DNA of 64,000 bases from Ignavibacteriales bacterium (GTDB lineage Bacteria > Bacteroidota > Ignavibacteria > UBA10030 > UBA6906), in NCBI GenBank assembly GCA_037441705.1, contig JBBIRR010000001.1, positions 192,001 through 256,000 of the forward strand. Reading direction: 5' to 3'. How positions within the stretch are numbered: position 1 is the first letter of the stretch; every line of letters begins with the position of its first letter. Under the pieces are notes generated by a model. That model did not search any database. It had not been told where the DNA came from and saw only the letters and a program-made list of their open reading frames with translations. This document shows, in pieces, positions 5,982-63,077 of this stretch. The translations under genes and the position numbers were made by a program.

Positions 5982-6536
5982 ATGCAGACTCCGACCATCA
6001 TCTTCACATACGATGACTACCTGACTCTTCCCAACGACGGGAAGAGATATGAGATTATTGACGGAGATTTGCACATCACCCCCGCACCCATCCCCGAGCA
6101 CCAGCTTGTCCTTGTTTATTTGACAGAAATCTTGCTGGCCTACCTTCGCAGCCATAAATGGGGAAAGTTGTTCGTTGCACCTACCGATGTGGTGTTCTCC
6201 ATGACGGAAGTGGCACAACCTGACATCGCAGTCGTTGCAAGAGAGCGTGACCACATCATCACAAAAAGGAATATCATTGCAGCTCCCGATCTCATCGTCG
6301 AGATTCTTTCGGAGGCAACGGAGAAAACCGACCGGACAACAAAGAAGGCGATGTACGAACGGCATGGCGTGAAAGAATACTGGATCGTTGATCCGTCCGA
6401 TCGCTCCGTGGAGATCTTCGAACTCGTGGGCGGAGCGTACGCGCCGGGCACACGCTTTGCATCAACGGAAGAAGTACACTCCCCGCTTCTGTCCGGGCTT
6501 TCGTTCCGTGTGCAGACCATTTTCGACTTCGAGTAG
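5982..6536 (+). CDS. Uma2 family PD-(D/E)XK endonuclease-like protein
   Basis: TYDDYLTLP..GKRYEIIDG..PAP..HQ, QPDI, APDLIVEILS, GVKEYWIVDP. Confidence 0.93.
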   Translation: MQTPTIIFTYDDYLTLPNDGKRYEIIDGDLHITPAPIPEHQLVLVYLTEILLAYLRSHKWGKLFVAPTDVVFSMTEVAQPDIAVVARERDHIITKRNIIAAPDLIVEILSEATEKTDRTTKKAMYERHGVKEYWIVDPSDRSVEIFELVGGAYAPGTRFASTEEVHSPLLSGLSFRVQTIFDFE

Positions 6537-6563: not shown

Positions 6564-8072
6564 ATGTCACTCGCGGCAGAAGTACCCTCCATCGCCTCTG
6601 CAACAAAATCCTCCAACGGCGTTCGTGTGTTGATGAACTATGTGAACGGCTCGTGGGTGGACGCAAGAACCGGAGAGTTCCAACCTGTCATGAATCCTTC
6701 AATCGGGCAGCAGATTGCCCGGGTGCCGCTCTCGCTGCCGGAGGATGTTGATGCGGCAGTGCGCGCCGCGCGGGCGGCCTTCCCCGCATGGTCGGCAACG
6801 CCCATCAAGGAACGTGTGCAGGTTTTCTTCCGCTACAAGCGCTTGATGGAAGACCATCTGCAGGAGCTTGCCGCACTGGTGCATGAAGAAAACGGCAAGA
6901 CGATGAGCGAGGCAATCGCCGAAATCGAAAAGGCGATCGAAGTAACGGAGTTCGCATGCTCGATGCCGCAGCTTGTGACGGGAGAGATTCTCGAGGTGAG
7001 CAAAGGGGTCGAGTGCAGAATTGATCGCTATCCTGTCGGGGTCGTCGCCTCGATCACGCCGTTCAACTTTCCCCACATGGTCCCGAACTGGACGATCCCG
7101 AATGCACTGGTGCTGGGCAATACGATGATCCTCAAGCCATCCGAGCTTGTGCCGCTCAGTTCCATCCGCATCGCGGAACTGCTGAAGGAAGCCGGCCTTC
7201 CCGACGGCGTGTTCAACATCGTGCACGGCGGACAAACAGCAGTCGAAACAATTTGCGACCATCCGGGCATTGACGCACTCACGTTCGTTGGCTCGACGCG
7301 CGTCGCAAAGCTTGTGTACGCACGCGCGACGTCGCACTTCAAGCGAGCGCTCTGTTTGGGCGGGGCGAAGAATCACCTCATCGTCCTTCCCGACGCGCAT
7401 GAGGAAATGGCAGCGTCCAATATCGCCGCCTCGATGAGTGGCTGCGCCGGTCAACGCTGCATGGCCGCTTCGGCCATGGTCGCCGTCGGCAACGTGGACC
7501 ACATCATCAAGCGATTGTGTGAAGAAGCAAAGAAGATCATCCCCGGGAAAAATCTCGGCGCCGTCATCTCGAAGAAAGCGAAGGAACGCATCGAGGGCTA
7601 TATCACCGAAGCCGAACAGCAAGGGGCAAAAGTTCTCGTTGACGGACGGAACTATGTGGTCCAAGGAAAGGAGGAAGGCTTCTACGTGGGGCCAACAGTG
7701 ATTGACCACGTTCGTCCGGAAATGCGTATTGCGAACGAGGAGGTGTTCGGACCGGTTCTTGCCATCATGCGCGTCAACACGGTTGATGAGGCGCTAAAGA
7801 TTGAGAACAACAATCCGTACGGCAATGCGGCATCGGTGTTCACGCAAAGCGGGGGCGCTGCCCGCTACGTGATCGAGCGTGCAAGTGCGGGTATGATCGG
7901 CGTGAACATCGGCGTGCCCGTCCCACGAGAACCGTTCTCGTTCGGCGGATGGAATGAGTCGAAGTTCGGTGCGTGCGACATCACCGGCAAAAGCTCCATC
8001 GAGTTTCTCACCAAGCCGAAGAAGACCACCATCAAGTGGAATCCGGAATCGCGTGTGAATTGGATGAGTTAG
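6564..8072 (+). CDS. mmsA: CoA-acylating (methyl)malonate-semialdehyde dehydrogenase
   Basis: ITPFNFP, LKPSE, FVGST, GGAKNH, AGQRCMA, EEVFGPV, GMIGVNIGVPVP. AAAGGAG RBS. Confidence 0.93.
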   Translation: MSLAAEVPSIASATKSSNGVRVLMNYVNGSWVDARTGEFQPVMNPSIGQQIARVPLSLPEDVDAAVRAARAAFPAWSATPIKERVQVFFRYKRLMEDHLQELAALVHEENGKTMSEAIAEIEKAIEVTEFACSMPQLVTGEILEVSKGVECRIDRYPVGVVASITPFNFPHMVPNWTIPNALVLGNTMILKPSELVPLSSIRIAELLKEAGLPDGVFNIVHGGQTAVETICDHPGIDALTFVGSTRVAKLVYARATSHFKRALCLGGAKNHLIVLPDAHEEMAASNIAASMSGCAGQRCMAASAMVAVGNVDHIIKRLCEEAKKIIPGKNLGAVISKKAKERIEGYITEAEQQGAKVLVDGRNYVVQGKEEGFYVGPTVIDHVRPEMRIANEEVFGPVLAIMRVNTVDEALKIENNNPYGNAASVFTQSGGAARYVIERASAGMIGVNIGVPVPREPFSFGGWNESKFGACDITGKSSIEFLTKPKKTTIKWNPESRVNWMS

Positions 8073-8092
8073 CAAGGTAAACGTCTCGGAAA

Positions 8093-8124
8093 TGGAGTGT
8101 TGGAGTTCTGGAGTTGTGGGGGTT
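8093..8124 (+). repeat. Upstream 8-nt tandem-repeat arm, (TGGAGTNN)x4
   Basis: TGGAGTGT TGGAGTTC TGGAGTTG TGGGGGTT. Reverse complement of the array at 8644-8731. Confidence 0.8.
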
Positions 8125-8195
8125 CCATTACATCCCTGTGGTGGACGGAGGCTTCAAGTGAGAATCTATTGCGGACCGGAAATCCGGAGTTGCAA

Positions 8196-8636
8196 ATGAC
8201 CGAATATACGAAACGAAAGAACGTCAACCGCGGCTACATGAAGCTTGATGTCTGGCAGAATAGCATCGAGCTTTACAAGATCGTTCACAACATTGTTTAC
8301 AAGGAATCCCAATTGGATTTCAAAATCCGGTCACAGATCGACGACGCCGCTCATTCCGTCTCGAGCAACATCGCCGAAGGTTATGCAAGAAGATCAATCC
8401 ACGAGTACATCCAGCACCTTTATGTTGCTGCCGGGTCACTTGCAGAAACACTCACCCGAACAATTGGACTGATGGTAACAGGTCAGATATCTGGAAAACA
8501 GTTCGAGCACATTGATGAGATGCATTATGAAGTGGAGAACAAACTGATCCGACTCATAGAAAGCTTGGAGCATAAACGTGACACCGGCTCCTGGGTCAAC
8601 AAGATATCAGAACCCATAGACGTATACAACCCGTAG
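8196..8636 (+). CDS. Four-helix-bundle protein (23S rRNA IVS protein / Avd-like family)
   Basis: Y.KLDVWQ.S..L, SQI..AA.SVSSNIAEGY.R....EYIQHL..A.GSLAE signature. Confidence 0.92.
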   Translation: MTEYTKRKNVNRGYMKLDVWQNSIELYKIVHNIVYKESQLDFKIRSQIDDAAHSVSSNIAEGYARRSIHEYIQHLYVAAGSLAETLTRTIGLMVTGQISGKQFEHIDEMHYEVENKLIRLIESLEHKRDTGSWVNKISEPIDVYNP

Positions 8637-8643
8637 CTCCCAC

Positions 8644-8731
8644 CACTCCAATACCCCAATACTCCAATACTCCATTACTCCATTACTCCACTACTCCATC
8701 ACTGCGTCACTCCGTCACCCCATCACTCTAC
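8644..8731 (+). repeat. Downstream 8-nt tandem-repeat arm, (YACTCCAN)x11
   Basis: cactccaa taccccaa tactccaa tactccat tactccat tactccac tactccat cactgcgt cactccgt caccccat cactctac. The last unit overlaps the NCS1 stop codon. Confidence 0.92.
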
Positions 8732-10147
8732 CCTCCTCCTCATCATCGCCGCATACACCGCGAACGCGACCGCAAAGCCGACGAACCAGGCGTAGTCATA
8801 GAGAAAGCGCAACGGCTCCACCAACAAGCCGATGAGCGCGACCACGACGCCTGCGGCAAGGGCAAGGAGCGCCCGAAGATTGAACCCCCCTGCAAACTCA
8901 TACTCTCCCCCGCGTAGATACAGATCACGCACGCTGAGGGTTCTCTTCCGCACGAGATAGTAATCCGCGATCAACACACCGGCGATGGGACCGAGAAAAC
9001 TCGAGTACCCAACAAGCCAGCCGAAGATGTACGTACCGTAATCGGACAGCAGCTTCCACGGCATCATCACGATGCCCAGCACGGCCGTGATGAGGCCGCC
9101 GGTTTTGAAGCTGATTTTTCGCGGCAGCAGATTGGCAAAGTCGTTTGCCGGCGAGACAACATTTGCAGCAATATTCGTCGTGAGCGTTGCAACGACAAGA
9201 GCAATGAGCGAGAGAAGGATGACGATGGGACTTTCGAACTTCGACAGCAAGACGACCGGATCCCAAATCGCTTCGCCAAAAAGCACCACGGTGGCGGAGG
9301 TGACCGCCACACCGATGAACGAGTACAGAGCCATCGTCGGCGGCAGGCCGATGGCCTGACCAATGATCTGCGCACGCTGGCTTCGGGCGTAGCGCGTAAA
9401 GTCGGGAATGTTGAGCGAGAGCGTTGCCCAGAAGCCGACCATGCCGGTGAGCGACGGCATGAAGAACGCCCAGAACTCGCCGGCCGTCTGGAACTTGCTC
9501 GGCTGGGCAAACATGGGACCGAAGCTGCCGATGCGCGTATAAGCCCACGCCAACAGCGCCAGCCCAACAATGATCAGAAACGGCGCGGCAAGCGCTTCCA
9601 GCCATTTGATTGATTCCGTTCCTTTGATGATGAAGTAGACGTTCATTCCCCAGAAAATGAGAAACCCGATCGCCGGTCCCCATTCGAAAATAGCCCACTG
9701 CGGAAGCAGTAGGACGATCAGCGAGTTGAATGCCTGTCCCCCAATCCATGTTTGAATGCCGAACCACCCGCAGGCAACAACAGCGCGCAGCAATGCGGGC
9801 ACATTCGAGCCGAGCGTCCCGAATGAGGCACGCGCAAGAACCGGAAACGGAATGCCGTACTTCGTTCCTGCGTGCGCGTTCAACACCATTGGAATGAGCA
9901 CAATGATGTTACCGAGCGTGATGGTGAGCAGCGCCTGCCACCAATTCATGCCGCCGGCAATCAATCCGCTGGCAAGCATGTAGGTGGGGATGCAGACGCT
10001 CATGCCGATCCAGAGTGCGGCGATGTGGTACGTGCCCCACGTGCGCTGAGCGATTTTGGTCGGGGCGATGTCGGGATTGATGAGAGGACTGTGGTTGACG
10101 GAGGAGAGATCAGCCTCAACGAGTTCGGAGGTTACCTGCGTTTGCAT
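8723..10147 (-). CDS. NCS1 family nucleobase:cation symporter (uracil/hydantoin permease)
   Basis: ALWIGMSVCIP, KYGIPFPV..RASFG, GWFGIQTWIGG, LNIPDFTRYA, NIAANVVSPANDF. About 12 TM segments, inside the pyrimidine cluster. Confidence 0.93.
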   Translation of the reverse strand: MQTQVTSELVEADLSSVNHSPLINPDIAPTKIAQRTWGTYHIAALWIGMSVCIPTYMLASGLIAGGMNWWQALLTITLGNIIVLIPMVLNAHAGTKYGIPFPVLARASFGTLGSNVPALLRAVVACGWFGIQTWIGGQAFNSLIVLLLPQWAIFEWGPAIGFLIFWGMNVYFIIKGTESIKWLEALAAPFLIIVGLALLAWAYTRIGSFGPMFAQPSKFQTAGEFWAFFMPSLTGMVGFWATLSLNIPDFTRYARSQRAQIIGQAIGLPPTMALYSFIGVAVTSATVVLFGEAIWDPVVLLSKFESPIVILLSLIALVVATLTTNIAANVVSPANDFANLLPRKISFKTGGLITAVLGIVMMPWKLLSDYGTYIFGWLVGYSSFLGPIAGVLIADYYLVRKRTLSVRDLYLRGGEYEFAGGFNLRALLALAAGVVVALIGLLVEPLRFLYDYAWFVGFAVAFAVYAAMMRRRVE

Positions 10148-11947: not shown

Positions 11948-12175
11948 TCACGCGTTTGAGACGCCGGAGGCAGTTTGCCATTCAAGAACAAGCAAAGCCT
12001 GAATCTGAACAGGAACAGTGGCAAGAGTTTCGCCGTCTGAGTTGCTGAACTCCACAAGAACATTTTCATCATCAAGCGGCTCAACGACCGTCCCAACCAT
12101 CCCACGGATGAGTTTTTCGTCTGGGATGTCCTGAAGCAGTGCGACGACATCATAGGGCTTTGGTTTCGCCGTCAT
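11948..12175 (-). CDS. DUF4926 domain protein (putative antitoxin/immunity)
   Basis: YDVVALLQDIP...L.RGMVGTVVE......VEFSNSDGET.A pattern. Confidence 0.85.
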   Translation of the reverse strand: MTAKPKPYDVVALLQDIPDEKLIRGMVGTVVEPLDDENVLVEFSNSDGETLATVPVQIQALLVLEWQTASGVSNA

Positions 12176-12360
12176 TTCATTCTCCTCCTAACAAAACAAG
12201 AAATCAGTCGTGCTTTCGCGGAACGTCTTGGAACCATCCATATACTCCGAAGAATTTCCTTGCCCTTCACGCCGTCAATCTCATAATCAATTCGGAAGTA
12301 CTCACCGTACTTGTCACTTCGAACCAGTTGAGCTTCAGCTTCTTCCGTGGGAAGACTTCT
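12172..12360 (-). pseudogene. C-terminal remnant of a DUF6883-like putative toxin
   Basis: DKYGEYFRIDYEIDGVKG....RSIWMV......RLISCFV matches the C-terminal half of the usual DUF4926 partner. The ORF's nominal 5' end lies within a terminator hairpin. Confidence 0.6.
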
Positions 12361-12379
12361 TCTACTTTTCTGAGCCGCG

Positions 12380-12424
12380 AAAGACGGATGCCGGACAATT
12401 CCGTATTGCCGTTGCCCGGCATCC
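12380..12424 (-). terminator. Rho-independent terminator-like hairpin after the DUF1761-like gene
   Basis: Minus strand GGATGCCGGGCAA...TTGTCCGGCATCC (13 bp with one G-U pair), followed by GTCTTT. Confidence 0.6.
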
Positions 12425-12441
12425 AATGAGTTACGGTATTG

Positions 12442-12861
12442 TTATGCTGTCGCTGCGCCCTTCTTCATCACAGCCGCGACAACGGCACCGAGAATCACAT
12501 ACCAGATGATGCCGTAGATCGTCATGATCCACGATAGCCCGTACGGAAACCCGTTGAACATCAGGTTCATGAAGATGTATGTCGGGAAGCTCATGAGGAT
12601 CCCGAGGTAGAGACCCGCGGTTGCACCGTCCTTCACCGTTGTGCCGAACGAAGCGGCAACCTTGTCATACACCCATGCGAAAACGAACACTGCAACGAAG
12701 TCGCCGATAACGAACCATGCCACGTTCCCTTCCTGACGAAACAGTGCCGTGTTCTGCATGATGTACGCCGGTTGAAGCCACAAACTCCACACAAGCCAAT
12801 CCAGCACATTTACCACCACACCACCCACCAACACCGCGAGCCAGAACTTGCCGCTTTTCAT
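12442..12861 (-). CDS. Four-TM membrane protein (DUF1761-like)
   Basis: ATG at 12861 after GGAGG. Four hydrophobic segments, 'KDGATAGLYLG' pattern. Confidence 0.7.
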   Translation of the reverse strand: MKSGKFWLAVLVGGVVVNVLDWLVWSLWLQPAYIMQNTALFRQEGNVAWFVIGDFVAVFVFAWVYDKVAASFGTTVKDGATAGLYLGILMSFPTYIFMNLMFNGFPYGLSWIMTIYGIIWYVILGAVVAAVMKKGAATA

Positions 12862-12981
12862 AGTGCCTCCTATTGATGTTTGTTTGTTGTTTGGGTGATG
12901 ATTCGGTTGGCATAAAGGGACAATGTCATCCGAACCGTACATGTTCGTGTTCAAGAAGCAGGGCGTTGCCCCAGCGTCATG

Positions 12982-14332: not shown

Positions 14333-14570
14333 CAAATTTCAAAACTGAAACCGCAAATTACAAACAAAGTCCAAATCCCAAAAACCAAGCAAGCTGCAAA
14401 CCATTTGGAATTTGAAACTCTTGTGATCGGCGGCTCCGGGAAGCCTCCACTTTGTAGTTTGAATTTTGAAGCTTGCGATTTGTTTGGAATTTGGGATTTG
14501 AGATTTGATGCTTCTGATCTGTTGCTCCTTGGAGTCTTCTTCGGTACTTTGAATTGGGAGCTTCTGATTT
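14333..14570. repeat. Imperfect inverted repeat of 7-nt units with no gene between the arms
   Basis: Left arm aaaccgc aaattac aaacaaa gtccaaa tcccaaa aaccaag aligns with the reverse complement of the right arm, aaatccc aaattcc aaacaaa tcgcaag cttcaaa attcaaa. A partial third arm lies at about 14545-14570. Confidence 0.8.
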
Positions 14571-14612: not shown

Positions 14613-14662
14613 CCCCTGCCCGCCTTCTTTCCATCAGCCGCGGCATTCACCGCTTCCTTCAT
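14613..14662 (-). pseudogene. Diverged duplicate of the preT 3' end
   Basis: Encodes KEAVNAAADGKKAGRG versus PreT KEVVNAAADGKQAAHG. 34 of 40 nt identical to 15175-15214 by manual alignment. Confidence 0.85.
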
Positions 14663-14871
14663 GAATTGCCATTTTCTGTCTTCAGTTCGAAGGTCATAGC
14701 ACTTGGCTGTGTTATATGCTGCGTTGCATTGAGGATTTCGAATCCGACGATGTTGCCATCATAACCAAAGTCAACAACGATGCCTTCTCGTATTTCATCG
14801 CTTTCCTTGATTCGCTCGTCCCTGAAAACGACGTTCATGGTATCGGTATGTGGGTCATAAATCACTTTCAT
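14659..14871 (-). CDS. DUF2283 domain protein (putative antitoxin)
   Basis: MKVIYDPHTDTMNVVF....IKESDEI.EGIVVDF..DGNIVGFEILNA signature. Confidence 0.9.
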   Translation of the reverse strand: MKVIYDPHTDTMNVVFRDERIKESDEIREGIVVDFGYDGNIVGFEILNATQHITQPSAMTFELKTENGNS

Positions 14872-14879
14872 CGTTCTCC

Positions 14880-15134
14880 TCACATATATTTTTTGATATT
14901 CGATGTCTTGTACACCGTAATAACAGAATACGCATTCTCCAACACTTCAACAACAACTCGATAGAGCATAGGCTTCAAGAGAATCCGGTCATGAATGACT
15001 TTCTGATAGATTCTCCTACCGAGGCGTCCTTCGATGGTCTTGTCTGGTTCTGCAATCGTAAGTTCCACATCCGACTTGTCAATCTCACGCAACGTAAGCT
15101 CAAGAAGAGCACGAGAGCTGAATACCAACTTCAT
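14880..15134 (-). CDS. DUF4258-like protein (putative RelE/BrnT-fold toxin)
   Basis: LVFSSRA...L..REI....VE.TI.EPD....GR.GR.IYQK...RVVVE......VITVYKTS.I.KY. Adjacent to DUF2283 and TAATG-coupled to preT. Confidence 0.8.
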   Translation of the reverse strand: MKLVFSSRALLELTLREIDKSDVELTIAEPDKTIEGRLGRRIYQKVIHDRILLKPMLYRVVVEVLENAYSVITVYKTSNIKKYM

Positions 15135-16486
15135 TATCTATTCTGCGGGATCAGGAGTTGGTTTATTCCATGGGCCGCCTGCTTCCCATCGGCTGCAGCA
15201 TTCACCACTTCCTTGCCGCCGTTGATGCAATCGCCGCCGGCAAAGTATTTGGGATTGCTTGTCTGCATTGTTTCCGAGTTCACCCACACCCTGCCGCGTT
15301 CGATGCGTAATCCCGGAATCGTGCCGAGGAACGTCTCTTCAATCCGCTGCCCCACAGACTTGATAACCATGTCCACAGGAATTCGGAACTCCGAGCCGGG
15401 CACGGGCACAGGTCTGCGCCTGCCTTCTTCATCCGGCTCGCCGAGCTTCATCTGCACACACTCGATCGCCTCCACGTGCGTGTTGCCGATGATGCGGACC
15501 GGAGCGGTGAGAAACTGAAAGTGAACACCATCGCTCTTCGCCAGCTCATATTCGAACTCGTACGCCGGCATTTCCTCACGACTTCGTCGGTAGATGATCA
15601 TGACGTGTTCGGCACCGAGACGCCGCGCTTCGGTCACCGCATCAATCGCCGTGTTGCCCGCGCCGATGACCGCAACGCGACGACCGACATCTATTGCAGG
15701 CCAGTTGCGCGTCGTAACGCGTTCGATGAAATCAATGGCATCCACCACGCCCGACAGATCTTCGCCGGGAATGTTCAAACGCGATGATATCCCCAACCCC
15801 ACGCCGAGAAAAATTGCGTCGTGCCGCTGCTCAAGCTCTGCAAGCGTTACGTCCTTGCCGACTTTGACGCCTGAGTGAATCTTCACGCCGAAACTCTCGA
15901 CCAGTTTCACTTCCTTGAGGGCATCCTCCTGCGACATCTTGTAGGGCGCGATGCCCCAGGTGTTCAACCCGCCCGGCTTCGGCTTTGCGTCGTACACCGT
16001 CACATCGAACCCAAGCAGCGCCGCTTCGGCAGCACAGGCAAGTCCCGCCGCGCCCGCACCGATGACTCCAACGGACTTGCCGTTCTTCGGCTTCGGCTGG
16101 AACAGCGGCGGCATTCCGTGTTCGAAGTACCAGTCAAGCGCATAACGCTGCAAGCGTCCGATTTGAATCGGCTGCTCGCCGCGTTCGTTGTACACACACG
16201 CGCCTTCACACAGCACATCCACGGGACACGCCTTCGCACACGTCAACGCAACCCAATTGGACTTCAAAATCGTTTTTGCCGATCCCTTCAGATTGCCCGT
16301 CGCGATTTTTTTGATGAATGTAGGAATATCAATGTGCGTCGGGCACGCCTTTGTGCACGGCGAGTCGTAACAATACAAACACCTATTCGCCTCCGCCACA
16401 GCGGAGTTGGTGCTGAACGGGGGATGCAGCTCCGCGAAGTTGGCTTCGTATTGCTCAGGAGTAAGTTTGGGAGCGAGAGTGTTCAT
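15134..16486 (-). CDS. preT: Dihydropyrimidine dehydrogenase subunit PreT (GltD-like FAD/Fe-S)
   Basis: EANRCLYCYDSPCTKACPT, CAKACPVDVLCEGAC, IGAGAAG, IGAGNTAID, YRR, FAGGDC. Next to preA. Confidence 0.93.
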   Translation of the reverse strand: MNTLAPKLTPEQYEANFAELHPPFSTNSAVAEANRCLYCYDSPCTKACPTHIDIPTFIKKIATGNLKGSAKTILKSNWVALTCAKACPVDVLCEGACVYNERGEQPIQIGRLQRYALDWYFEHGMPPLFQPKPKNGKSVGVIGAGAAGLACAAEAALLGFDVTVYDAKPKPGGLNTWGIAPYKMSQEDALKEVKLVESFGVKIHSGVKVGKDVTLAELEQRHDAIFLGVGLGISSRLNIPGEDLSGVVDAIDFIERVTTRNWPAIDVGRRVAVIGAGNTAIDAVTEARRLGAEHVMIIYRRSREEMPAYEFEYELAKSDGVHFQFLTAPVRIIGNTHVEAIECVQMKLGEPDEEGRRRPVPVPGSEFRIPVDMVIKSVGQRIEETFLGTIPGLRIERGRVWVNSETMQTSNPKYFAGGDCINGGKEVVNAAADGKQAAHGINQLLIPQNR

Positions 16487-16953
16487 AGAGGGTTGGGGTC
16501 GTCAGATTCTGGATTCATGATGTTTGATTGGGGACTCAAGAACAGATCATAATCAGAAGTTGGCTCTTTTAGGAATCCTGGAGTTGAGTGAGAAGCCTCC
16601 ACAGCTTCGATGAACCGGAGCAGCATTTTGCTCTGTCGAACATATTCCGAGACGAGATCCTTGTACAAGCTTTGATCCGTTAGTGAACCTGTTTCAAGCA
16701 GAAAGGTCAAATGCTCTGTCGTCTCTTCACATGATCCGTATGCCCGATAGACATAGTGAAGAAACTCAGCTTTATACTTACGCAGAGCAAATCCTTCTAC
16801 TATCTGGGCGGAGATGGATTTTGATGACCTTCTGACCTGACTGCCTTCTTCATACCACTCAAACTTCGGCAAAGCCAGAGTCATTTGATGAACTCTCACG
16901 GCGAGCGAATGGGAAAGTTTGTAGCTGTCCAATCGTTTGTACCCAGCTTCCAT
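16483..16953 (-). CDS. Four-helix-bundle protein (23S rRNA IVS protein / Avd-like family)
   Basis: YKRLDSY..S..LA..V...T..LPKFE.YE.GSQVRRSSKSI.A.IVEGF..R.YK.EF......A.GS..ET. GAGG RBS. Confidence 0.93.
   Translation of the reverse strand: MEAGYKRLDSYKLSHSLAVRVHQMTLALPKFEWYEEGSQVRRSSKSISAQIVEGFALRKYKAEFLHYVYRAYGSCEETTEHLTFLLETGSLTDQSLYKDLVSEYVRQSKMLLRFIEAVEASHSTPGFLKEPTSDYDLFLSPQSNIMNPESDDPNPL
16502..16536 (+). repeat. Downstream 7-nt repeat arm, read through by the four-helix-bundle ORF
   Basis: tcagatt ctggatt catgatg tttgatt ggggact. Complementary to 16994-17042. Confidence 0.65.
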
Positions 16954-16993: not shown

Positions 16994-17042
16994 ACCCAGA
17001 ATCCAGCAGCCACAATCTTGAATCCAGCATCCACAATCCGGA
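16994..17042 (+). repeat. Upstream 7-nt repeat arm, (ATCCANN)x7
   Basis: acccaga atccagc agccaca atcttga atccagc atccaca atccgga. Begins right after the aminotransferase stop codon. Confidence 0.85.
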
Positions 17043-18443: not shown

Positions 18444-18484
18444 GGTTCGGGGTTCGGCGTTGGGGTTCAAGGTTCAAGGTTCAG
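18444..18484 (+). repeat. Solo 7-nt repeat arm (GGTTCRR)
   Basis: ggttcgg ggttcgg cgttgg ggttcaa ggttcaa ggttcag, between the nitrilase-family and aminotransferase genes. Confidence 0.75.
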
Positions 18485-27066: not shown

Positions 27067-28665
27067 TCAAAACCTCACGCTCAGTTCAGCGAAAACGGAG
27101 TTCGATATCGTGCCGTAGCCGTCCAGCCTATCGAACGTCGTCATCAAGGTAAGGGACTGAGTGATGAAGACGAGAAGGTCGGCGCCGAGGGTTGTACTGT
27201 GGTCGCGCTGGTTTGTCTGACGCACGGTGTAACCGCTACGTTGGATGCGCGCGGTGACATCGAACAGCGCGCCGAACGCCCGCTGCACGGCAACACCGTA
27301 GCCCGATGCGTGCGTGTAGCGGTTCGCATGCAGGTTCACCGTCGAACGCACGGCAATGCCTGAGGAAAGAATGTCGTTGAATGAAAGGGATGAGATGTTG
27401 GAGTATTCCCTGCCGAAGGCTGCCTCCGGTGCGTTGCGCGGCCGGTAGGTGTTTGTCAGAGCGATGCCCGCGGGAAGGAACCAATTGAACGTCAGGCTCA
27501 ATCCGGATCGCAGATCATCAATGAGCAGCGAATCGGGGATGTCGCGGACCGCGCGGAAGCTGTAATACGGACGCGCAGCGTCGGCACCGACTCCTACGCT
27601 GAGCGACCCTGCGATGCGATACGTGAGATGGATATAGGCAGCGGTCAAACGCGGCGAGAGAATGAACTCGCTCCCCGCCTTCTTCCGCAAATCTGTCTCG
27701 ACATTCCCATACACAAAGAGGCTGCTGCCAATCGAAGCGTTGAGCAGCAGGCTCGCCACTTCGCGGTCGAGAGCGGAACGATAGTACGTCCTCGCATACG
27801 CCGCACCAACGGAGAGTTGCGACGGCGCGGGCACCGACACTTGCGCGAACAGGGCGACCTTCTTGTACTCGGTGGAGATACTCCGGAGCGTGAAGTCCGG
27901 CTGATACCCAAGCGTCGTTCCGACAAGCAGGGGACCGAGCTTTGCCGAAGCCATCAGCCCGTCCACATAACCGATGGACGGCGCATAGATGGGGATGATC
28001 CTTCCAACGGAGAGAATCCGATCACCGTCGTCGTATGTTACCGAAAGTCCGTAGATGCGGGATTGGTTAACCGCGCGCTTCGAAAACGGACTCCGATTGC
28101 CGATGGTGAGCGAGCGAAGGTTGGCAAGGATTTCGACCTGCAGCGGCACATCACGCAGCCCGCCGCGCAAGTTCAGCACAACACCCGGTTGCGTAATGTT
28201 GAAGGCAGAGTTCTCATAAAGCGACGTGAAGTACTGTGCACTCACGCGTCCCTGCAGCGTGAACGGCGAGCGTTCTGCGATGGATGACGATCGAACCGGC
28301 TGAGGATTCGGCAGCGGCTCGCCGGACGTTCGCTCCAGTTGGGGTGCGGCGGGGTCGGCTTTCTTCTGCTCGAGCAGGATGACTCTCGCCCACACCTCAT
28401 CGCCGACCACAATCTGACGCAGCGCGCTCACGACCCTGCATACCGACGACTTGGAACTCACAGCGTACACCTTCAGCACCGCAGTGGTATCCCGTCCGGC
28501 AACGACGTACAGCAGCGTCGAGTCCTGCACGCCGCTTCCGCGACCCAGCGAGGTGTACACACTCCCGCCCGCAAGGTAGGTAACGGTTCCACGAACAATC
28601 TTCTCTTCCGCCTGCAGCATGCACGCCGCAAGCATTCCTATCACCACCACGGTCTTCTTCATCAC
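27067..28665 (-). CDS. Putative outer-membrane beta-barrel (porin) with a small N-terminal beta domain
   Basis: Signal peptide, Pro-rich linker, alternating amphipathic strands, C-terminal 'VFAELSVRF'. Lies between cytochrome genes. Confidence 0.8.
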   Translation of the reverse strand: MMKKTVVVIGMLAACMLQAEEKIVRGTVTYLAGGSVYTSLGRGSGVQDSTLLYVVAGRDTTAVLKVYAVSSKSSVCRVVSALRQIVVGDEVWARVILLEQKKADPAAPQLERTSGEPLPNPQPVRSSSIAERSPFTLQGRVSAQYFTSLYENSAFNITQPGVVLNLRGGLRDVPLQVEILANLRSLTIGNRSPFSKRAVNQSRIYGLSVTYDDGDRILSVGRIIPIYAPSIGYVDGLMASAKLGPLLVGTTLGYQPDFTLRSISTEYKKVALFAQVSVPAPSQLSVGAAYARTYYRSALDREVASLLLNASIGSSLFVYGNVETDLRKKAGSEFILSPRLTAAYIHLTYRIAGSLSVGVGADAARPYYSFRAVRDIPDSLLIDDLRSGLSLTFNWFLPAGIALTNTYRPRNAPEAAFGREYSNISSLSFNDILSSGIAVRSTVNLHANRYTHASGYGVAVQRAFGALFDVTARIQRSGYTVRQTNQRDHSTTLGADLLVFITQSLTLMTTFDRLDGYGTISNSVFAELSVRF

Positions 28666-31232
28666 ACATTCCTATGGCAACTGTAACATGCTTGACTGTT
28701 GTACTGATAGTTCGGAACGTTCTGATGCTCGCGATCCATCTCGCTCTGGCGATGTTCGTGACAACTGATGCAGGTAAAGATCTGGTACTGCCCGAGGGTC
28801 GGGTGACATTGTGAGCAGGAGGTCCACTTCCCGCGGTGTTTGCCCGAATAAATCCTGAAATACTGCAGGTCGTGGTTGAATGTTGACGGCCTCCAGGCAG
28901 TCGTCGTGTGGCACGGTGTGCAATCGTGGCTGAACTGGAGCGTCACGTGATTGGGGTTCTGCGGCTGTGCATACTGCGCAGCATGGCATTGATAACAATC
29001 CTGATACGTCAAGTTGTAGTTGTTGTTGACATGACAGGAGACGCACGGCGTCGTTACGTGCCGTCCCGTGAGCGGGAATGCAGAGTTGTTATGATCGAAC
29101 GATGCCGGACTCCACGCCGCCGTTGTGTGACACTCTGTGCAGTTCTGACTGAAGTTGCGAGCCACGTGGTTTGGGTTGGTCGTGTTGTTGAAGTCGGTGA
29201 GATGACAACCCACACACGCCGTCGGCAAACCCTGGTACTGGTTGTTCACATGGCACTGGTTGCACGACGTTGCCAGATGCGCCCCGGTCAACGGAAACGC
29301 CGTGTTCGCATGATTGAACGTGGACGGCAGCCACGCCGTCGTCGTATGGCACGGCGCGCAGTCGTGATTGAAGTTGCCCAGCACGTGGTTCGGATTCGTC
29401 GGCAATGCATACTGCGCCGTGTGACAGGGATAGCAGTTCGTGTACTGCAGCTGATAATTCCCGCTCACGTGGCAATCCTGACACTGAATCGTTGCGTGCC
29501 GCCCCGTCAGCGGGAAGTTTGTGCTTGCATGATTGAACGACGCCGGATGCCACGCCGATTGAGTGTGGCACGTCAAACAATCGTGACTGAACTGTCCCTG
29601 CTGATGGTTGGGATTGGTCGTATTGTTGAAGGCCGTCGCATGGCAATCCCAGCACGTGTGCGGAAGATTCTGATACTGATTGTTGCGATGACATTGGTTG
29701 CACGTCACCGTCTGATGCGCGCCAACTAACGGAAACGCCGTGGTCGCATGATTGAACGTGGACGGCAACCATGCCGTCGTCGTGTGGCACGGCGCGCAGT
29801 CATGATTGAAGTTGCCCAGCACGTGGTTCGGATTCGTCGGCAATGCATACTGCGCCGTGTGACAGGGATAGCAGTCCGTGTACTGCAGCTGATAATTCCC
29901 GTTCACGTGGCAATCCTGACACTGAATCGTTGCGTGCCGCCCCGTCAGCGGGAAGTTTGTGCTTGCATGATTGAACGACGCCGGATGCCACGCCGAGGTT
30001 GTGTGACACTCCGTGCAATTCATACTGAAGCCTGCCGTCTGGTGGTTCGGATTCGTCGCGTTGTTGAAGTTCGACCTGTGGCAATCCACACAATTAGAGG
30101 GGATGGTGGTGTACTGCCCGTTCCGATGACATTGCTCGCAGCTGATGGCAAGATGTGCCCCGGTCAGCGGGAACGCCGTTGTGCTGTGATTGAAAGTCGA
30201 GGGCCGCCATGCAGTCTGCGAATGGCACGTTGCACATTCGGTCGGAAAGTTGCCCGCGGTGTGGTTGGGGCTCGTGGTGCCGTTGTACGCCGGGCGATGA
30301 CAGGCCACGCACTCCGTCGGCCTGCCGGCAAATTGATTATCCGCGTGACAGGCGCGGCATTGTTGGACGTGATGCGCGCCTACAAGAGGAAAGAGAGTTT
30401 GGTTGTGATCGAACCGCGCACCCTCCCACGTTGCAGTCGTATGGCAGCTTTGACATTCGGAGGAGAACCGCGCCGCCGCGTGGTTCGGATTGGTTGTTGA
30501 AGCAAACGCCGCTTGATGGCACGCAGCACATTGCTGAGGCGTGGAGCTAAACGCCGGTGTTGTGTGACAATCCGCGCAGGCGGTGGTTCGGTGCGCGCCC
30601 GTGAGGGGAAACGCCGTCCCTTCGTGCGTAAACCCTGTGCCCCACCGAAACGCCGTCACCTGATGGCATTGCTCGCAGTTAGGAGAAAAGCGAGCGAACG
30701 CGTGATTGGGATTCGTCGTGCGAGCGTAATCGGAACGGTGACAGCCGGCGCAGACGGTCGGCGTCCCCGCAAACAGCTTCTGCGCCGCGTTGGTGTGGCA
30801 CATCTGGCATGCGAGCGTTGCGTGCTTGCCCAACAGCGGAAAGCGCGTCAGTTGATGCTTCTGCACCATGTCCCCCACCCGCCAATTATCCGTCGAGTGA
30901 CAGCGTGTACAGCCTGTGCCCAACTCGCCGCGATGGACATCCGTGTGGCAGGAGAAGCAATCCGATGAGGCCTTTGCAAATTTCAATCCTGCGTGACAGG
31001 ACGAACATTGCAGCGAAGTGTGTTGCCCTTGCAACACGAAGCCGGTTGCGGCATGATCGAAGCTTGCATCTTTTCTCAGCTTCCACGTCTCAGTGTTGTG
31101 ACAGCTCGCGCAGGCATACCGAATCGGCCCGTGCGGCGATTCCTGAGCGTACACGTTCTCACCCACACATATCGCCAGCGTCAACAGACCGGCAACGAAC
31201 AGGGCTTGTCCTGTGTGTGCTCTGTTAACCAT
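28662..31232 (-). CDS. Giant multiheme c-type cytochrome, 34 CxxCH
   Basis: Signal peptide ending NVYA-QESPHGP. 34 CxxCH counted by hand, arranged in 73-aa three-heme modules. Confidence 0.95.
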   Translation of the reverse strand: MVNRAHTGQALFVAGLLTLAICVGENVYAQESPHGPIRYACASCHNTETWKLRKDASFDHAATGFVLQGQHTSLQCSSCHAGLKFAKASSDCFSCHTDVHRGELGTGCTRCHSTDNWRVGDMVQKHQLTRFPLLGKHATLACQMCHTNAAQKLFAGTPTVCAGCHRSDYARTTNPNHAFARFSPNCEQCHQVTAFRWGTGFTHEGTAFPLTGAHRTTACADCHTTPAFSSTPQQCAACHQAAFASTTNPNHAAARFSSECQSCHTTATWEGARFDHNQTLFPLVGAHHVQQCRACHADNQFAGRPTECVACHRPAYNGTTSPNHTAGNFPTECATCHSQTAWRPSTFNHSTTAFPLTGAHLAISCEQCHRNGQYTTIPSNCVDCHRSNFNNATNPNHQTAGFSMNCTECHTTSAWHPASFNHASTNFPLTGRHATIQCQDCHVNGNYQLQYTDCYPCHTAQYALPTNPNHVLGNFNHDCAPCHTTTAWLPSTFNHATTAFPLVGAHQTVTCNQCHRNNQYQNLPHTCWDCHATAFNNTTNPNHQQGQFSHDCLTCHTQSAWHPASFNHASTNFPLTGRHATIQCQDCHVSGNYQLQYTNCYPCHTAQYALPTNPNHVLGNFNHDCAPCHTTTAWLPSTFNHANTAFPLTGAHLATSCNQCHVNNQYQGLPTACVGCHLTDFNNTTNPNHVARNFSQNCTECHTTAAWSPASFDHNNSAFPLTGRHVTTPCVSCHVNNNYNLTYQDCYQCHAAQYAQPQNPNHVTLQFSHDCTPCHTTTAWRPSTFNHDLQYFRIYSGKHRGKWTSCSQCHPTLGQYQIFTCISCHEHRQSEMDREHQNVPNYQYNSQACYSCHRNV
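29290..29996. repeat. Near-identical intragenic direct repeat (29290-29558 and 29728-29996)
   Basis: Two copies of about 269 nt, 438 nt apart. 7 mismatches by manual comparison. Confidence 0.9.
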
Positions 31233-32892
31233 TGCGGATGCTTCCTGGTGTATGACATGATTCGCACGTTGATGGCATCGGCTTGAAGCGAACGAACGCC
31301 GTCGCCCCCCGGCGTTCTTCGCGATGGCACCGGCGGCACGGCACTCGCACATGAGCGCCCGTCAACGCAAACGTGCTGTGGGTATTGTGATCGAAAATCA
31401 GATTCTTCCATCCCTGTGGCTGGTGACAGCGGGCGCAATCGCTGGAGCCGTTGACGGCAAACTGACCCGCATGCGCATCCTCGTGGCACGCCGCGCACCG
31501 CCTGTCGGTTCCTTTGTACTGCGGCACCTCGAATCCTCCAACCTTCTTCGCGCGATGACAGGCGCCGCATCTGACGCTCGCATGTTTACCCACGAGGGGA
31601 AAGTTCGTCTTTGCATGATCGAAACTCTCGGGCCGCCAGTCGGTCGTGGAATGACATGCGTCGCAGCTTCTGCCTTTCATCTCCTGAGCAAACTGCCCTC
31701 CGTGGCGATCGCGATGGCACGCCTCGCAGCGCAGGTCGGCAAAGTGAAAGCCGCGCCGCCCGTCGTCGCCGCGCACGTGACAATCCTCGCAGAGCACCGC
31801 CGCATGCGCTCCCGTCAGCGGAAAACGCGCAGCACGATGAGCAGCCACGGTAAACGTCGCAGGAACGAACCCGAACGGCGTGTGGCACGATTCACACCGA
31901 TTGCCGAAGCGGGCGGCAAAATCTCCACGATGATAGTCCACGTGGCAATCAGTACACGCATTGTGTGCCAACTTCAGGGCCGAACCTGCGCGGGAGGTTC
32001 CCGTCTTATGGCACTTCTCGCACGCAACAAGCGCATGCTTGCCGAGAAGCTTGAAGGCTGTCTGATCATGATTGAATTTGCCCGCCAATGTGCGAACATT
32101 CCAACCATCAGGTACATGGCACGAACGACACGGCTGCTGCGAAAATCTCGCACTGTGAGGTGAAACGTGACACGGTGCGCAATCCCCGAACTCCTTTGTC
32201 CCAAACAGAACCGGCATTGCTTTCGTCTTCTGCTCCGGCGATGTGTGGCACTTGCTACACGGTACTGTGGCGTGCTTGCCTGTCAACGCAAACTCGGTCT
32301 TCGCATGATCGAACGCAGGCGTCGGAGACCATGTCGATGTGGAATGACAGCTCTGGCACTCGGTCCCCACCGTTTTCGCATGGCGATCTTCATGACAGCT
32401 GATGCAGCCTGTGCCCAGTCCGAGAAACGTCTCCCGACCCGTCTTCTGCACAAGCGCCTTCACGTCCGCGTCCTGAATCAACCTCGGTGTATGGCACTCC
32501 TCGCAGCGGATTGTTGCGTGCTTCCCCGTTCTCACGAATCCCGTGCGCGCATGATCAAACGAAAGCCGATCAATCAGAACCGTCTTCGCCTCAGCGCCAA
32601 GGTGTTCCTTATGACATGCAACGCACGGCTGCGATGAGACATTGAAATGATATCCCCTCTTTCTCTGGAGAGCGTTCTTGATCTCGGTATGACAGGTGAG
32701 ACACTTCCTGCCGCTGATTTCTTTCCCTGTTTCATGGCATTGCAGACAGTTGTTGATGCCTTCCAACTGCCGATGCGCACGCGAGAGCTCGCCCGGCGAA
32801 AACTGCGCGAACGAGTGGGCCATGATACCCACGGTAAGCATCAGCGAAACCCGAAGTGCCTGCACAACCCTCATCCTTCTGCCTTCCATCAA
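31225..32892 (-). CDS. Multiheme c-type cytochrome, 20 CxxCH
   Basis: Signal peptide, QFSPGELSRAH..LEG..NCLQCH start, 20 CxxCH counted by hand. Confidence 0.95.
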   Translation of the reverse strand: MMEGRRMRVVQALRVSLMLTVGIMAHSFAQFSPGELSRAHRQLEGINNCLQCHETGKEISGRKCLTCHTEIKNALQRKRGYHFNVSSQPCVACHKEHLGAEAKTVLIDRLSFDHARTGFVRTGKHATIRCEECHTPRLIQDADVKALVQKTGRETFLGLGTGCISCHEDRHAKTVGTECQSCHSTSTWSPTPAFDHAKTEFALTGKHATVPCSKCHTSPEQKTKAMPVLFGTKEFGDCAPCHVSPHSARFSQQPCRSCHVPDGWNVRTLAGKFNHDQTAFKLLGKHALVACEKCHKTGTSRAGSALKLAHNACTDCHVDYHRGDFAARFGNRCESCHTPFGFVPATFTVAAHRAARFPLTGAHAAVLCEDCHVRGDDGRRGFHFADLRCEACHRDRHGGQFAQEMKGRSCDACHSTTDWRPESFDHAKTNFPLVGKHASVRCGACHRAKKVGGFEVPQYKGTDRRCAACHEDAHAGQFAVNGSSDCARCHQPQGWKNLIFDHNTHSTFALTGAHVRVPCRRCHREERRGATAFVRFKPMPSTCESCHTPGSIRNG

Positions 32893-63002: not shown

Positions 63003-63065
63003 GGGATTTGAGATTTTGGATTTGGGATTTTGGATTTTGGATTCTGGATTATGGATGTTGGATTC
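63003..63065 (+). repeat. Solo 7-nt tandem-repeat arm, (TGGATTT)x9
   Basis: gggattt gagattt tggattt gggattt tggattt tggattc tggatta tggatgt tggattc. Fills the thiolase-thioesterase gap. Confidence 0.92.
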
Positions 63066-63077
63066 TTGGCCTTGGGT

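Follow-up and report, generated by a model that had tools for sequence, protein, structure and literature searches.

A four-helix-bundle gene between inverted 8-nt repeat arrays as a candidate operon-embedded counterpart of rRNA intervening sequences

Why should a small four-helix-bundle gene at the end of an operon lie between two short-period repeat arrays that are complementary to one another? The question is raised by positions 8091-8728 of a 64,000-nt stretch of an Ignavibacteriales bacterium genome (GenBank assembly GCA_037441705.1, contig JBBIRR010000001.1, positions 192,001 to 256,000; this whole stretch is called the window below). There, a gene of the S23p / 23S ribosomal RNA (rRNA) intervening-sequence (IVS) protein / Avd-like family stands between mmsA and a permease gene. 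An earlier note, made from the letters of this DNA, had proposed that the gene and its arrays form a mobile cassette resembling an rRNA intervening sequence. Our analysis favors, at a probability of roughly 55%, the reading that 8091-8728 is an IVS-like cassette embedded in an operon and one of a widespread class, its arms pairing as a working RNA stem. That gene and arms together form one IVS-like unit is, taken by itself, very probable.

A four-helix-bundle gene between complementary arrays

The upstream host gene, mmsA (6564..8072, plus strand), is an open reading frame (ORF) for a CoA-acylating methylmalonate-semialdehyde dehydrogenase (Pfam Aldedh, 1.3e-138; TIGR01722, 538.7 bits against a cut-off of 448.5), and ends with a TAG stop codon at 8070-8072. 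The 8-nt array that the note had placed about 20 nt beyond this stop is indeed there. This first (5') arm, at 8091..8124 on the plus strand, is G-rich and almost without C; it holds four TGGAGTNN units at 8093-8124, the fourth of them degenerate, and begins 18-20 nt past the mmsA stop. Tandem Repeats Finder (TRF) reports it as 8093-8119, with period 8 and 3.4 copies. The enclosed gene, which we call copy 1, occupies 8196..8636 on the plus strand and has its stop codon at 8634-8636. Its longest ORF begins at GTG 8097 and thus spans the first-arm array; we prefer the start at ATG 8196 because the resulting 146 aa is the length of most relatives (mostly 145-150 aa among the 120 listed).

The complementary array of about eleven units, which the note had placed just behind the four-helix-bundle gene, starts 4 nt past its stop codon and extends to the stop codon of the convergent permease gene. 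This second (3') arm (8640..8728, plus strand) consists of about eleven 8-nt units, each the complement ACTCCA plus 2 nt, and is C-rich and almost without G; TRF divides it into 8645-8698 (period 8, 6.8 copies, 91% matches) and 8693-8728 (period 8, 4.5 copies). The permease gene itself (8723..10147, minus strand) encodes an NCS1-type cytosine/purine/uracil permease (Pfam Transp_cyt_pur, 1.3e-119) and is the last gene of a minus-strand pyrimidine-catabolism operon. When the upstream flank of copy 1 was locally aligned with the reverse complement of its downstream flank, the score was 32, which none of 2000 dinucleotide shuffles reached (z = 6.1). An inverted-repeat search paired 8091-8121 with 8654-8684 (31 nt, 81% complementary) and found six more registers, and a diagonal count gave seven registers with an ungapped score of at least 20, in line with the claim that the arms are complementary in several registers.

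Within 7900-8900, a promoter scan returned no promoters, and a terminator scan returned one terminator-like site, which lies within mmsA and is no more than shuffles give. No Rfam family, rRNA included, was matched at gathering thresholds anywhere in the window. The cassette is most likely transcribed together with its host operon.

Copy 1 matches PF05635 at 5e-21 (75.4 bits; curated cut-off 33.8) and TIGR02436 at 4.5e-21 (75.1 bits; cut-off 24). Its AlphaFold model (pLDDT 86.3) contains four helices, at residues 17-37, 42-63, 68-94 and 100-130. With this model, Foldseek returned 2GSC (XCC0516) as the best match (E 1.4e-5, TM 0.71/0.89), followed by 2RLD (BT_0352; E 1.1e-4) and then by Avd, a protein of diversity-generating retroelements (DGRs), in entries 4DWL and 8UB7. 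The TM scores against these two Avd entries were 0.64-0.68 by query length and 0.80-0.86 by target length, at a sequence identity of 12-14%. A profile search against the PDB also found 2GSC, at 2.2e-13. Together with the family description in the available text of PMC4990558, these matches bear out the proposed link of the family to 23S rRNA intervening sequences and to Avd. The 2GSC and 2RLD entries hold five chains each, and a homopentamer is reported for the family, with reference to Lin 2006 (PMC4990558); by analogy, the encoded protein is probably pentameric.

Ahead of the bundle, residues 1-16 of copy 1 make up a conserved basic N-terminal tail, modeled with low confidence, and in an alignment of 23 relatives N11, R12, Y14, M15 and K16 in this tail are invariant. 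We regard the tail as a candidate nucleic-acid contact. One protein search returned 870 relatives of this single subfamily, and a tblastn search of 72,556 plasmids with copy 1 gave no match at E 1e-8. Among the relatives listed, close ones often lie on contigs of only 0.5-3 kb, which would fit assembly breaks at the arms.

Arms across the family and insertion as a unit

Are such arms a general companion of these genes? We collected 80 public loci by a genome scan for the family, with up to 6 kb on each side, and added the window; its source genome is not among the 80 loci, the best match being 77% identical. The loci are mostly metagenome bins whose taxon labels are perhaps wrong (two are titled Bifidobacterium), and their genes were called as longest ORFs. 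A profile search of all ORFs in the loci found 91 family genes, 88 of them with usable flanks, and each was scored by local alignment of the 250 nt upstream with the reverse complement of the 250 nt downstream. RNAduplex on the whole 250-nt flanks was tried and rejected: its energies followed G+C content, which confounded the comparison of matched with mismatched loci, and it was replaced by the stringent local alignment.

The survey for inverted arms suggested in the earlier note gave a strong enrichment. A score of at least 28 was reached by 61 of the 88 family genes and by 6 of 400 neighboring genes of the same loci (Mann-Whitney p = 6e-36), and one of the four top outliers among these controls is another PF05635 gene. 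The inverted flank score was matched by at most 1 of 100 dinucleotide shuffles in 69/88 family genes, against 11/88 in a direct-orientation control. Arms accompany 20/25 genes in Ignavibacteriota, 12/18 in Bacteroidota and 11/17 in Verrucomicrobiota, and were also found in Fidelibacterota, Poribacteria, Acidobacteriota, Calditrichota and Planctomycetota, eight phyla in all. They also occur in records titled complete chromosomes (L059, L060 and L062).

These counts bear on the simplest rival, that the arms are low-complexity sequence formed by chance, or an error of assembly. A second family gene of the window, copy 2, is on its own compatible with chance, its arm score of 24 being marginal (reached by 72 of 2000 shuffles), and many relatives sit on short metagenomic contigs. 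The arms of copy 1, however, were matched by no shuffle, and arms recur around 61 of the 88 genes, the complete-chromosome records included. For copy 1 and for the family as sampled, chance or artefact is refuted, and as an account of this locus it is hardly credible.

The arms have a recurrent anatomy. Period 8 was best in 21/23 upstream and 18/23 downstream flanks with an autocorrelation of at least 0.7, and the 45 kb beside family genes contain 125 period-8n arrays, against 80 in all the rest (810 kb). First arms have the consensus unit RATGGANT and second arms ANTCCATY, with subfamily cores of TGGAGT, TGGATT, TGGAAT, TGGATG, TGAATG, TGCATG or GGAAG; nine divergent paralogues have periods of 6, 7, 11 or 14. 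Watson-Crick pairs between the arms are formed at 91-99% of core positions (91% at the polymorphic N) and at 57-68% of spacer positions. The first arm is 5.2% C and the second 4.6% G, and in 59 of 61 cassettes it is the G-rich arm that precedes the gene. Of the two with the opposite polarity, one lies in L062.

The arms are also placed closely between their neighbors. The median distance from the upstream stop codon to the first arm is 3 nt (at most 10 nt in 41/60), that from the second arm to the next start codon is 25 nt, and the arm motif is identical when read inward from either end. Second-arm length showed no trend with the orientation of the downstream gene (10 convergent, 72 co-directional), and the 89-nt second arm of the window is idiosyncratic. 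First arms are enriched over mononucleotide shuffles in mini-ORFs (ATG-NNN-stop) and in TAATG/TGATG motifs, because the RATGGANT unit itself yields them. A comparison of protein residues with unit type (GGAGT vs GGAT[TG]) over independent pairs gave only two supported pairs, too few for power.

Cassettes sit between co-directional operon genes or, as in the window, at the end of an operon. The upstream neighbor was co-oriented in 83/86 cases and the downstream neighbor in 72/82, with a background of 76%. Host junctions include SufB|SufC, xanthine-dehydrogenase subunits, ABC ATPase|FtsX permease, thiolase|3-hydroxyacyl-CoA dehydrogenase, epimerase|GDP-mannose dehydratase (gmd) and Cas6|Cas4-Cas1, among others. 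In Poribacteria (L059-L062, L067; L062 6697-6751 and 8432-8800), the cassette lies between cas6 and a cas4-cas1 fusion, with many GGAAG/CTTCC period-8 arrays.

Orthologous junctions differ in whether they are occupied. In an ABC-transporter operon, both junctions are filled in L025; junction 1 is empty (39 nt) in L042 and filled in L027, where junction 2 carries an ORF-less arm pair. L079 is empty (5 nt) at the epimerase|gmd junction, where L061 carries a cassette. Comparison of filled with empty junctions shows that the extra DNA starts and finishes with the arms. Unit type, mapped on the protein tree, requires 22 changes against a shuffled mean of 42.4, and none of 200 shuffles matches this; since relatedness alone can cause such clustering, we read from it no more than that gene and arms are inherited together. 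One TGGTAT lies within the empty ABC ATPase|permease junction of L042 (4685-4723); the arms at the orthologous, filled junction of L025 are built of this unit, and the lone copy could be a footprint, a seed or a coincidence.

The mmsA locus itself has a close counterpart in L001, where the order is the same as in the window: mmsA (81% identity), cassette (77%) and convergent permease (84%). Silent sites between the two are saturated (pS 0.69-0.77), the nonsynonymous distance (dN) is 0.148 for the four-helix-bundle gene and 0.139 and 0.138 for its neighbors, and both loci retain TGGAGT/ACTCCA arms. Saturated silent sites, low dN and retained arms together indicate that the cassette is old, fixed at mmsA|permease and held by selection. 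The comparison of orthologous mmsA loci called for in the note was made with this one relative, and it found a filled, syntenic and therefore fixed site, which speaks against recent mobility. Many other surveyed loci are syntenic as well, which counts against current mobility, and of 16 pairs of paralogues from the same genome none exceeds 52% identity (median 27%), so no near-identical copies are among them. A transposase was found neither in the cassette nor in a scan of 58 window ORFs, although one supplied in trans from elsewhere in the genome would escape a 64-kb window.

Judged from sequence, the gene is inherited and inserted together with its arms as a single unit, and protein and arm motif are both kept by selection. 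Of the proposal that such a unit colonizes intergenic junctions without a transposase, the unit, the junctions and the lack of a transposase in the window stand; recent mobility is not supported.

RNA stem, DNA ends or intergenic feature

How might the arms work? In the transcript, the two arms would pair into a long stem of about 6-bp helices broken every 8 nt, with the ORF looped out, and this stem would be the working part, recognized by RNase III, by the cassette's own protein or by the two together. It could serve as a platform for the probably pentameric protein, as Avd reads the flipped-out bases of a stem-loop, and a helix interrupted each 8 nt by poorly paired spacer bases would suit reading by a protein. 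It could equally serve as an RNase III site, as in rRNA intervening sequences. In either role it would shield the host operon from the gene that it carries. Action of the arms as an RNA stem, and not at the DNA level, is a tentative proposal, which we consider slightly more doubtful than not.

Several results weigh against this picture, and they reach beyond the stem to the mobility and generality of the cassette. When we folded 8075-8735, as the earlier note had advised, the arms paired in both the minimum-free-energy (MFE) and centroid structures, but the z-score was only -1.77, from only 20 shuffles; the copy 2 fold gave z = +0.68. In MFE folds of the 88 isolated cassettes with 150-nt flanks, flank pairing of at least 20 bp appeared in 76/88 real and in 53/88 flank-shuffled sequences, and because shuffled flanks also pair, we discarded flank-to-flank folding as evidence. 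A selected sense-strand RNA helix would be expected to show an excess of G:U over A:C among arm mismatches, so its absence counts against the stem: we found 63 G:U against 81 A:C overall, with equal counts of 9 in the core and, in the spacer, 18 G:U and 33 A:C. The note's idea of a long double-stranded RNA stem as a signal therefore finds no backing in either measure. The arm polarity, which reads alike on both strands, is a real asymmetry that pairing leaves unexplained. No target-site duplication was seen in the two comparisons of filled with empty junctions. L001 synteny, saturated silent sites and paralogue pairs at most 52% identical leave no sign of recent mobility, and mobility of the cassette appears, on these comparisons, to be historical only. 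Finally, since the 88 genes were picked by similarity to the window protein, the survey result covers this subfamily and nine divergent paralogues, not the whole of PF05635.

Because there is no G:U excess and folding does not discriminate, a role of the arms at the DNA level has to be weighed. The arms would then be terminal binding-site arrays or single-stranded DNA hairpins, serving a recombinase in trans or the four-helix-bundle protein itself in moving or maintaining the cassette, and ORF-less hairpins would be derivatives like miniature inverted-repeat transposable elements (MITEs). The arms do coincide with the limits of inserted DNA, and their motif is the same inward from both ends, like transposon ends. 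ORF-less arrays fit as well. The intergenic regions of the loci contain 17 ORF-less periodic inverted arrays with loops of 7-212 nt, some of them flush between a stop and the next start codon (for example L027 7677-7776 and L053 7264-7389), and these have more 6-mers in common with the cassette of the same locus (0.21) than with those of other loci (0.062; permutation p = 0.0015; 13 same-locus pairs), one of the shared units being the rare GGTATA of L025. Intervening sequences of rRNA can likewise lack an ORF, and we draw the likeness to these arrays.

Against a DNA-level role, the arms are retained in a copy fixed since before silent-site saturation, and with no paralogue pair more than 52% identical, unused transposition ends should have decayed over such a time. 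The window cassette has no transposase or recombinase gene, either within it or next to it, and no target duplication was seen. The operon-tied orientation (83/86) is not required by DNA ends, and an 8-bp spacing would set successive sites on different faces of the duplex. We consider action at the DNA level rather unlikely. An ORF-less hairpin of another kind was observed in L068 (4581-4720; score 61, 24-nt loop), 1.3 kb 5' of the cassette of that locus; its 7-nt TTGACCA-like units differ from the unit of the cassette.

Short-period arrays could also be a general intergenic feature, acting in translation coupling, Rho loading or masking, or messenger RNA (mRNA) stability, in whose existing hairpins four-helix-bundle genes merely land or are tolerated. 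The window offers some material for this view. An ORF-less inverted pair of 7-nt arrays lies at 14380-14510 (minus strand) between a DUF2283 gene and preA, a CAAATCC-type array followed by a GGATTTG-type one. Two solo C-rich arrays, for which no partner array was seen, directly follow stop codons on the minus strand: one of AATCCA/AAAATCC type with 9.3 copies at 63004-63069, after a thiolase gene, and one of TGAACCT type at 18444-18483, after the beta-ureidopropionase gene. ORF-less arrays occur in the surveyed loci too, arrays abut stop and start codons, the G-poor second arm (4.6% G) is nearly without start codons, and intergenic heptamer direct repeats are reported to be abundant elsewhere (PMC4679880). 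This explanation, however, does not account for the enrichment of 61/88 against 6/400 genes of the same loci, nor for a unit type that follows protein phylogeny across phyla and unrelated operons. Moreover, the empty junctions of 5 nt and 39 nt hold no existing arm pair, only a single unit copy being present in the longer one. We judge it very unlikely. The pair at 14380-14510, in minus-strand reading, has the order opposite to that of the cassettes, with its C-rich array leading.

Returning to the reading of the cassette as an IVS-like unit with a working RNA stem, a bolder extension would make protein and periodic arms a self-recognizing module. One protomer of the ring would bind each 8-nt unit, subfamily units would act as addresses, the particle would be excised from a polycistronic mRNA or would insulate it, and ORF-less hairpins would be non-autonomous sites served in trans by whichever protein has the matching unit. 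As a whole this scheme is speculative and, in our judgment, distinctly unlikely.

Copy 2 and other passengers belong to the same metabolic cluster of the window, which encodes reductive pyrimidine catabolism: mmsA, the NCS1 permease, dihydropyrimidinase, preA-like and preT-like dehydrogenase subunits, a class-III aminotransferase and beta-ureidopropionase. Copy 2 (156 aa; 16483..16953, minus strand) lies between the aminotransferase and preT genes, its stop overlapping the preT start. It matches PF05635 at 4.1e-22 (78.9 bits) and TIGR02436 at 2.1e-22 (79.4 bits), and is 27% identical to copy 1 (BLASTP E 7e-13). Its upstream arm (16996..17039, minus strand) is a period 7/21 array with a TGGATT core, reported by TRF as 16996-17039 and 16999-17038, and begins straight after the aminotransferase stop (17044). 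The downstream arm is weak and lies at 16505..16521 (minus strand), within the C-terminal tail of the ORF; the pair 16505-16521 / 17015-17031 spans 17 nt, is 88% complementary and has a TGGATT/AATCCA core. The note had taken copy 2 to use a different unit and concluded that architecture rather than sequence is conserved. That contrast does not hold: TGGATT/AATCCA is one base from TGGAGT, and it is the period (7/21) that differs, in arms that are marginal.

Two gene pairs of toxin-antitoxin-like size, both on the minus strand, occupy further junctions of the pyrimidine operon, DUF4258 (under the Pfam cut-off) with DUF2283 at 14659-15134 and DUF6883 with DUF4926 at 11948-12426, so nearly every junction there holds a passenger. 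Between the latter pair and preA, at 12442-12954 (minus strand), is a gene for a predicted membrane protein of 170 aa, for which neither Pfam nor NCBIfam gave a match. Elsewhere in the window, a gene for a Uma2-family putative endonuclease (5982-6536) lies directly 5' of mmsA, and a 438-bp tandem repeat (29051-30229; about 2.2-2.3 copies, 81-82% matches) lies inside a gene for an 896-aa multiheme cytochrome (28662-31352, minus strand).

Meaning and comparison with known systems

PF05635/TIGR02436 proteins are very common in bacterial genomes, and we know of no function for the family beyond the role of Avd in DGRs. An 8-nt array and its complement beside the gene supply a conserved candidate nucleic-acid partner, which makes the function of the family testable. 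If the cassette reading is true, it would explain why the same ORF occurs in rRNA intervening sequences, why four-helix-bundle genes occur inside unrelated operons, including cas loci (PMC3936711; Cas6|Cas4-Cas1 in L059), and how some short-period intergenic arrays in these genomes arose. The self-recognizing module, if true, would give a function to the very large S23p/IVP family, provide an mRNA counterpart of the rRNA intervening sequence and define a transposase-free class of operon-dwelling elements. In practice, the arms are an annotation marker for cassettes, and period-8 arrays beside cas genes could be taken wrongly for CRISPR repeats.

What is newly described here is an IVS-like element in messenger-RNA operons; the family was already known from rRNA intervening sequences, from cas loci and as Avd. 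Members are reported inside rRNA intervening sequences (PMC4990558; 10.1101/2024.02.27.582315) and within cas loci, for example between cmr3 and cmr2 (PMC3936711; PMC10910872), and the family is recorded as an Avd homologue (PMC10053308). We found no earlier description of periodic inverted arms around non-rRNA copies in a literature that was largely open-access, supplements excluded, so a prior note may exist. A survey of inversions (PMC9881135) does not mention the family.

The closest comparison is with the 23S rRNA intervening sequences of the Leptospira, Coxiella and Xanthomonas type. As described in the available text of PMC4990558, those that carry an S23p ORF have terminal inverted repeats whose 28-bp stem is cleaved by RNase III, and heptamers in tandem directly 5' of the ORF. 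The cassette likewise has a PF05635 ORF within terminal inverted repeats able to form a long stem, short tandem repeats just 5' of the ORF, and no transposase. It differs in its host, which is a protein-coding operon junction (mmsA/permease) rather than an rRNA helix, and in its arms, which are themselves periodic arrays, usually of period 8 and with conserved polarity. RNase III excision is a feature of the rRNA elements and is only proposed for the window cassette. Whereas the S23p ORF of Coxiella is reported to be decaying (PMC4990558), the cassette protein is under purifying selection.

With DGRs, the cassette shares the four-helix-bundle fold of Avd, as predicted by its model. The Avd pentamer is reported to contact an RNA stem-loop by flipped-out bases, using the same residues of different protomers, and RNA segments on the two sides of the DGR template, one upstream and one downstream, form a duplex (10.1101/2023.10.23.563531). 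A scan of 58 window ORFs, however, found no reverse-transcriptase domain such as DGRs have.

MITEs and transposons with subterminal arrays resemble the cassette in their inverted ends of repeated short motifs, in ORF-less derivatives that have a common motif in the genome, and in presence or absence at orthologous sites. The cassette departs from them in that no transposase was found in it or in the window ORFs scanned, no near-identical copies occur among the within-genome pairs and no target-site duplication was seen, and in its long-term retention under purifying selection.

Comparable intergenic short-period repeats are the cyanobacterial STRR sequences. Intergenic heptamer direct repeats (TAACTGA) that end just upstream of start codons are reported from Beggiatoaceae, cyanobacteria and five Bacteroidetes, with only one inverted case in the available text (PMC4679880). 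Like the cassette arms, the TAACTGA arrays have a short period, abut start codons in operon intergenic regions and are patchy across phyla. As that text describes them, however, they are period-7 direct repeats with neither an enclosed gene nor a complementary partner array, whereas the arms at 8091-8728 enclose a conserved gene between two arrays that mirror one another.

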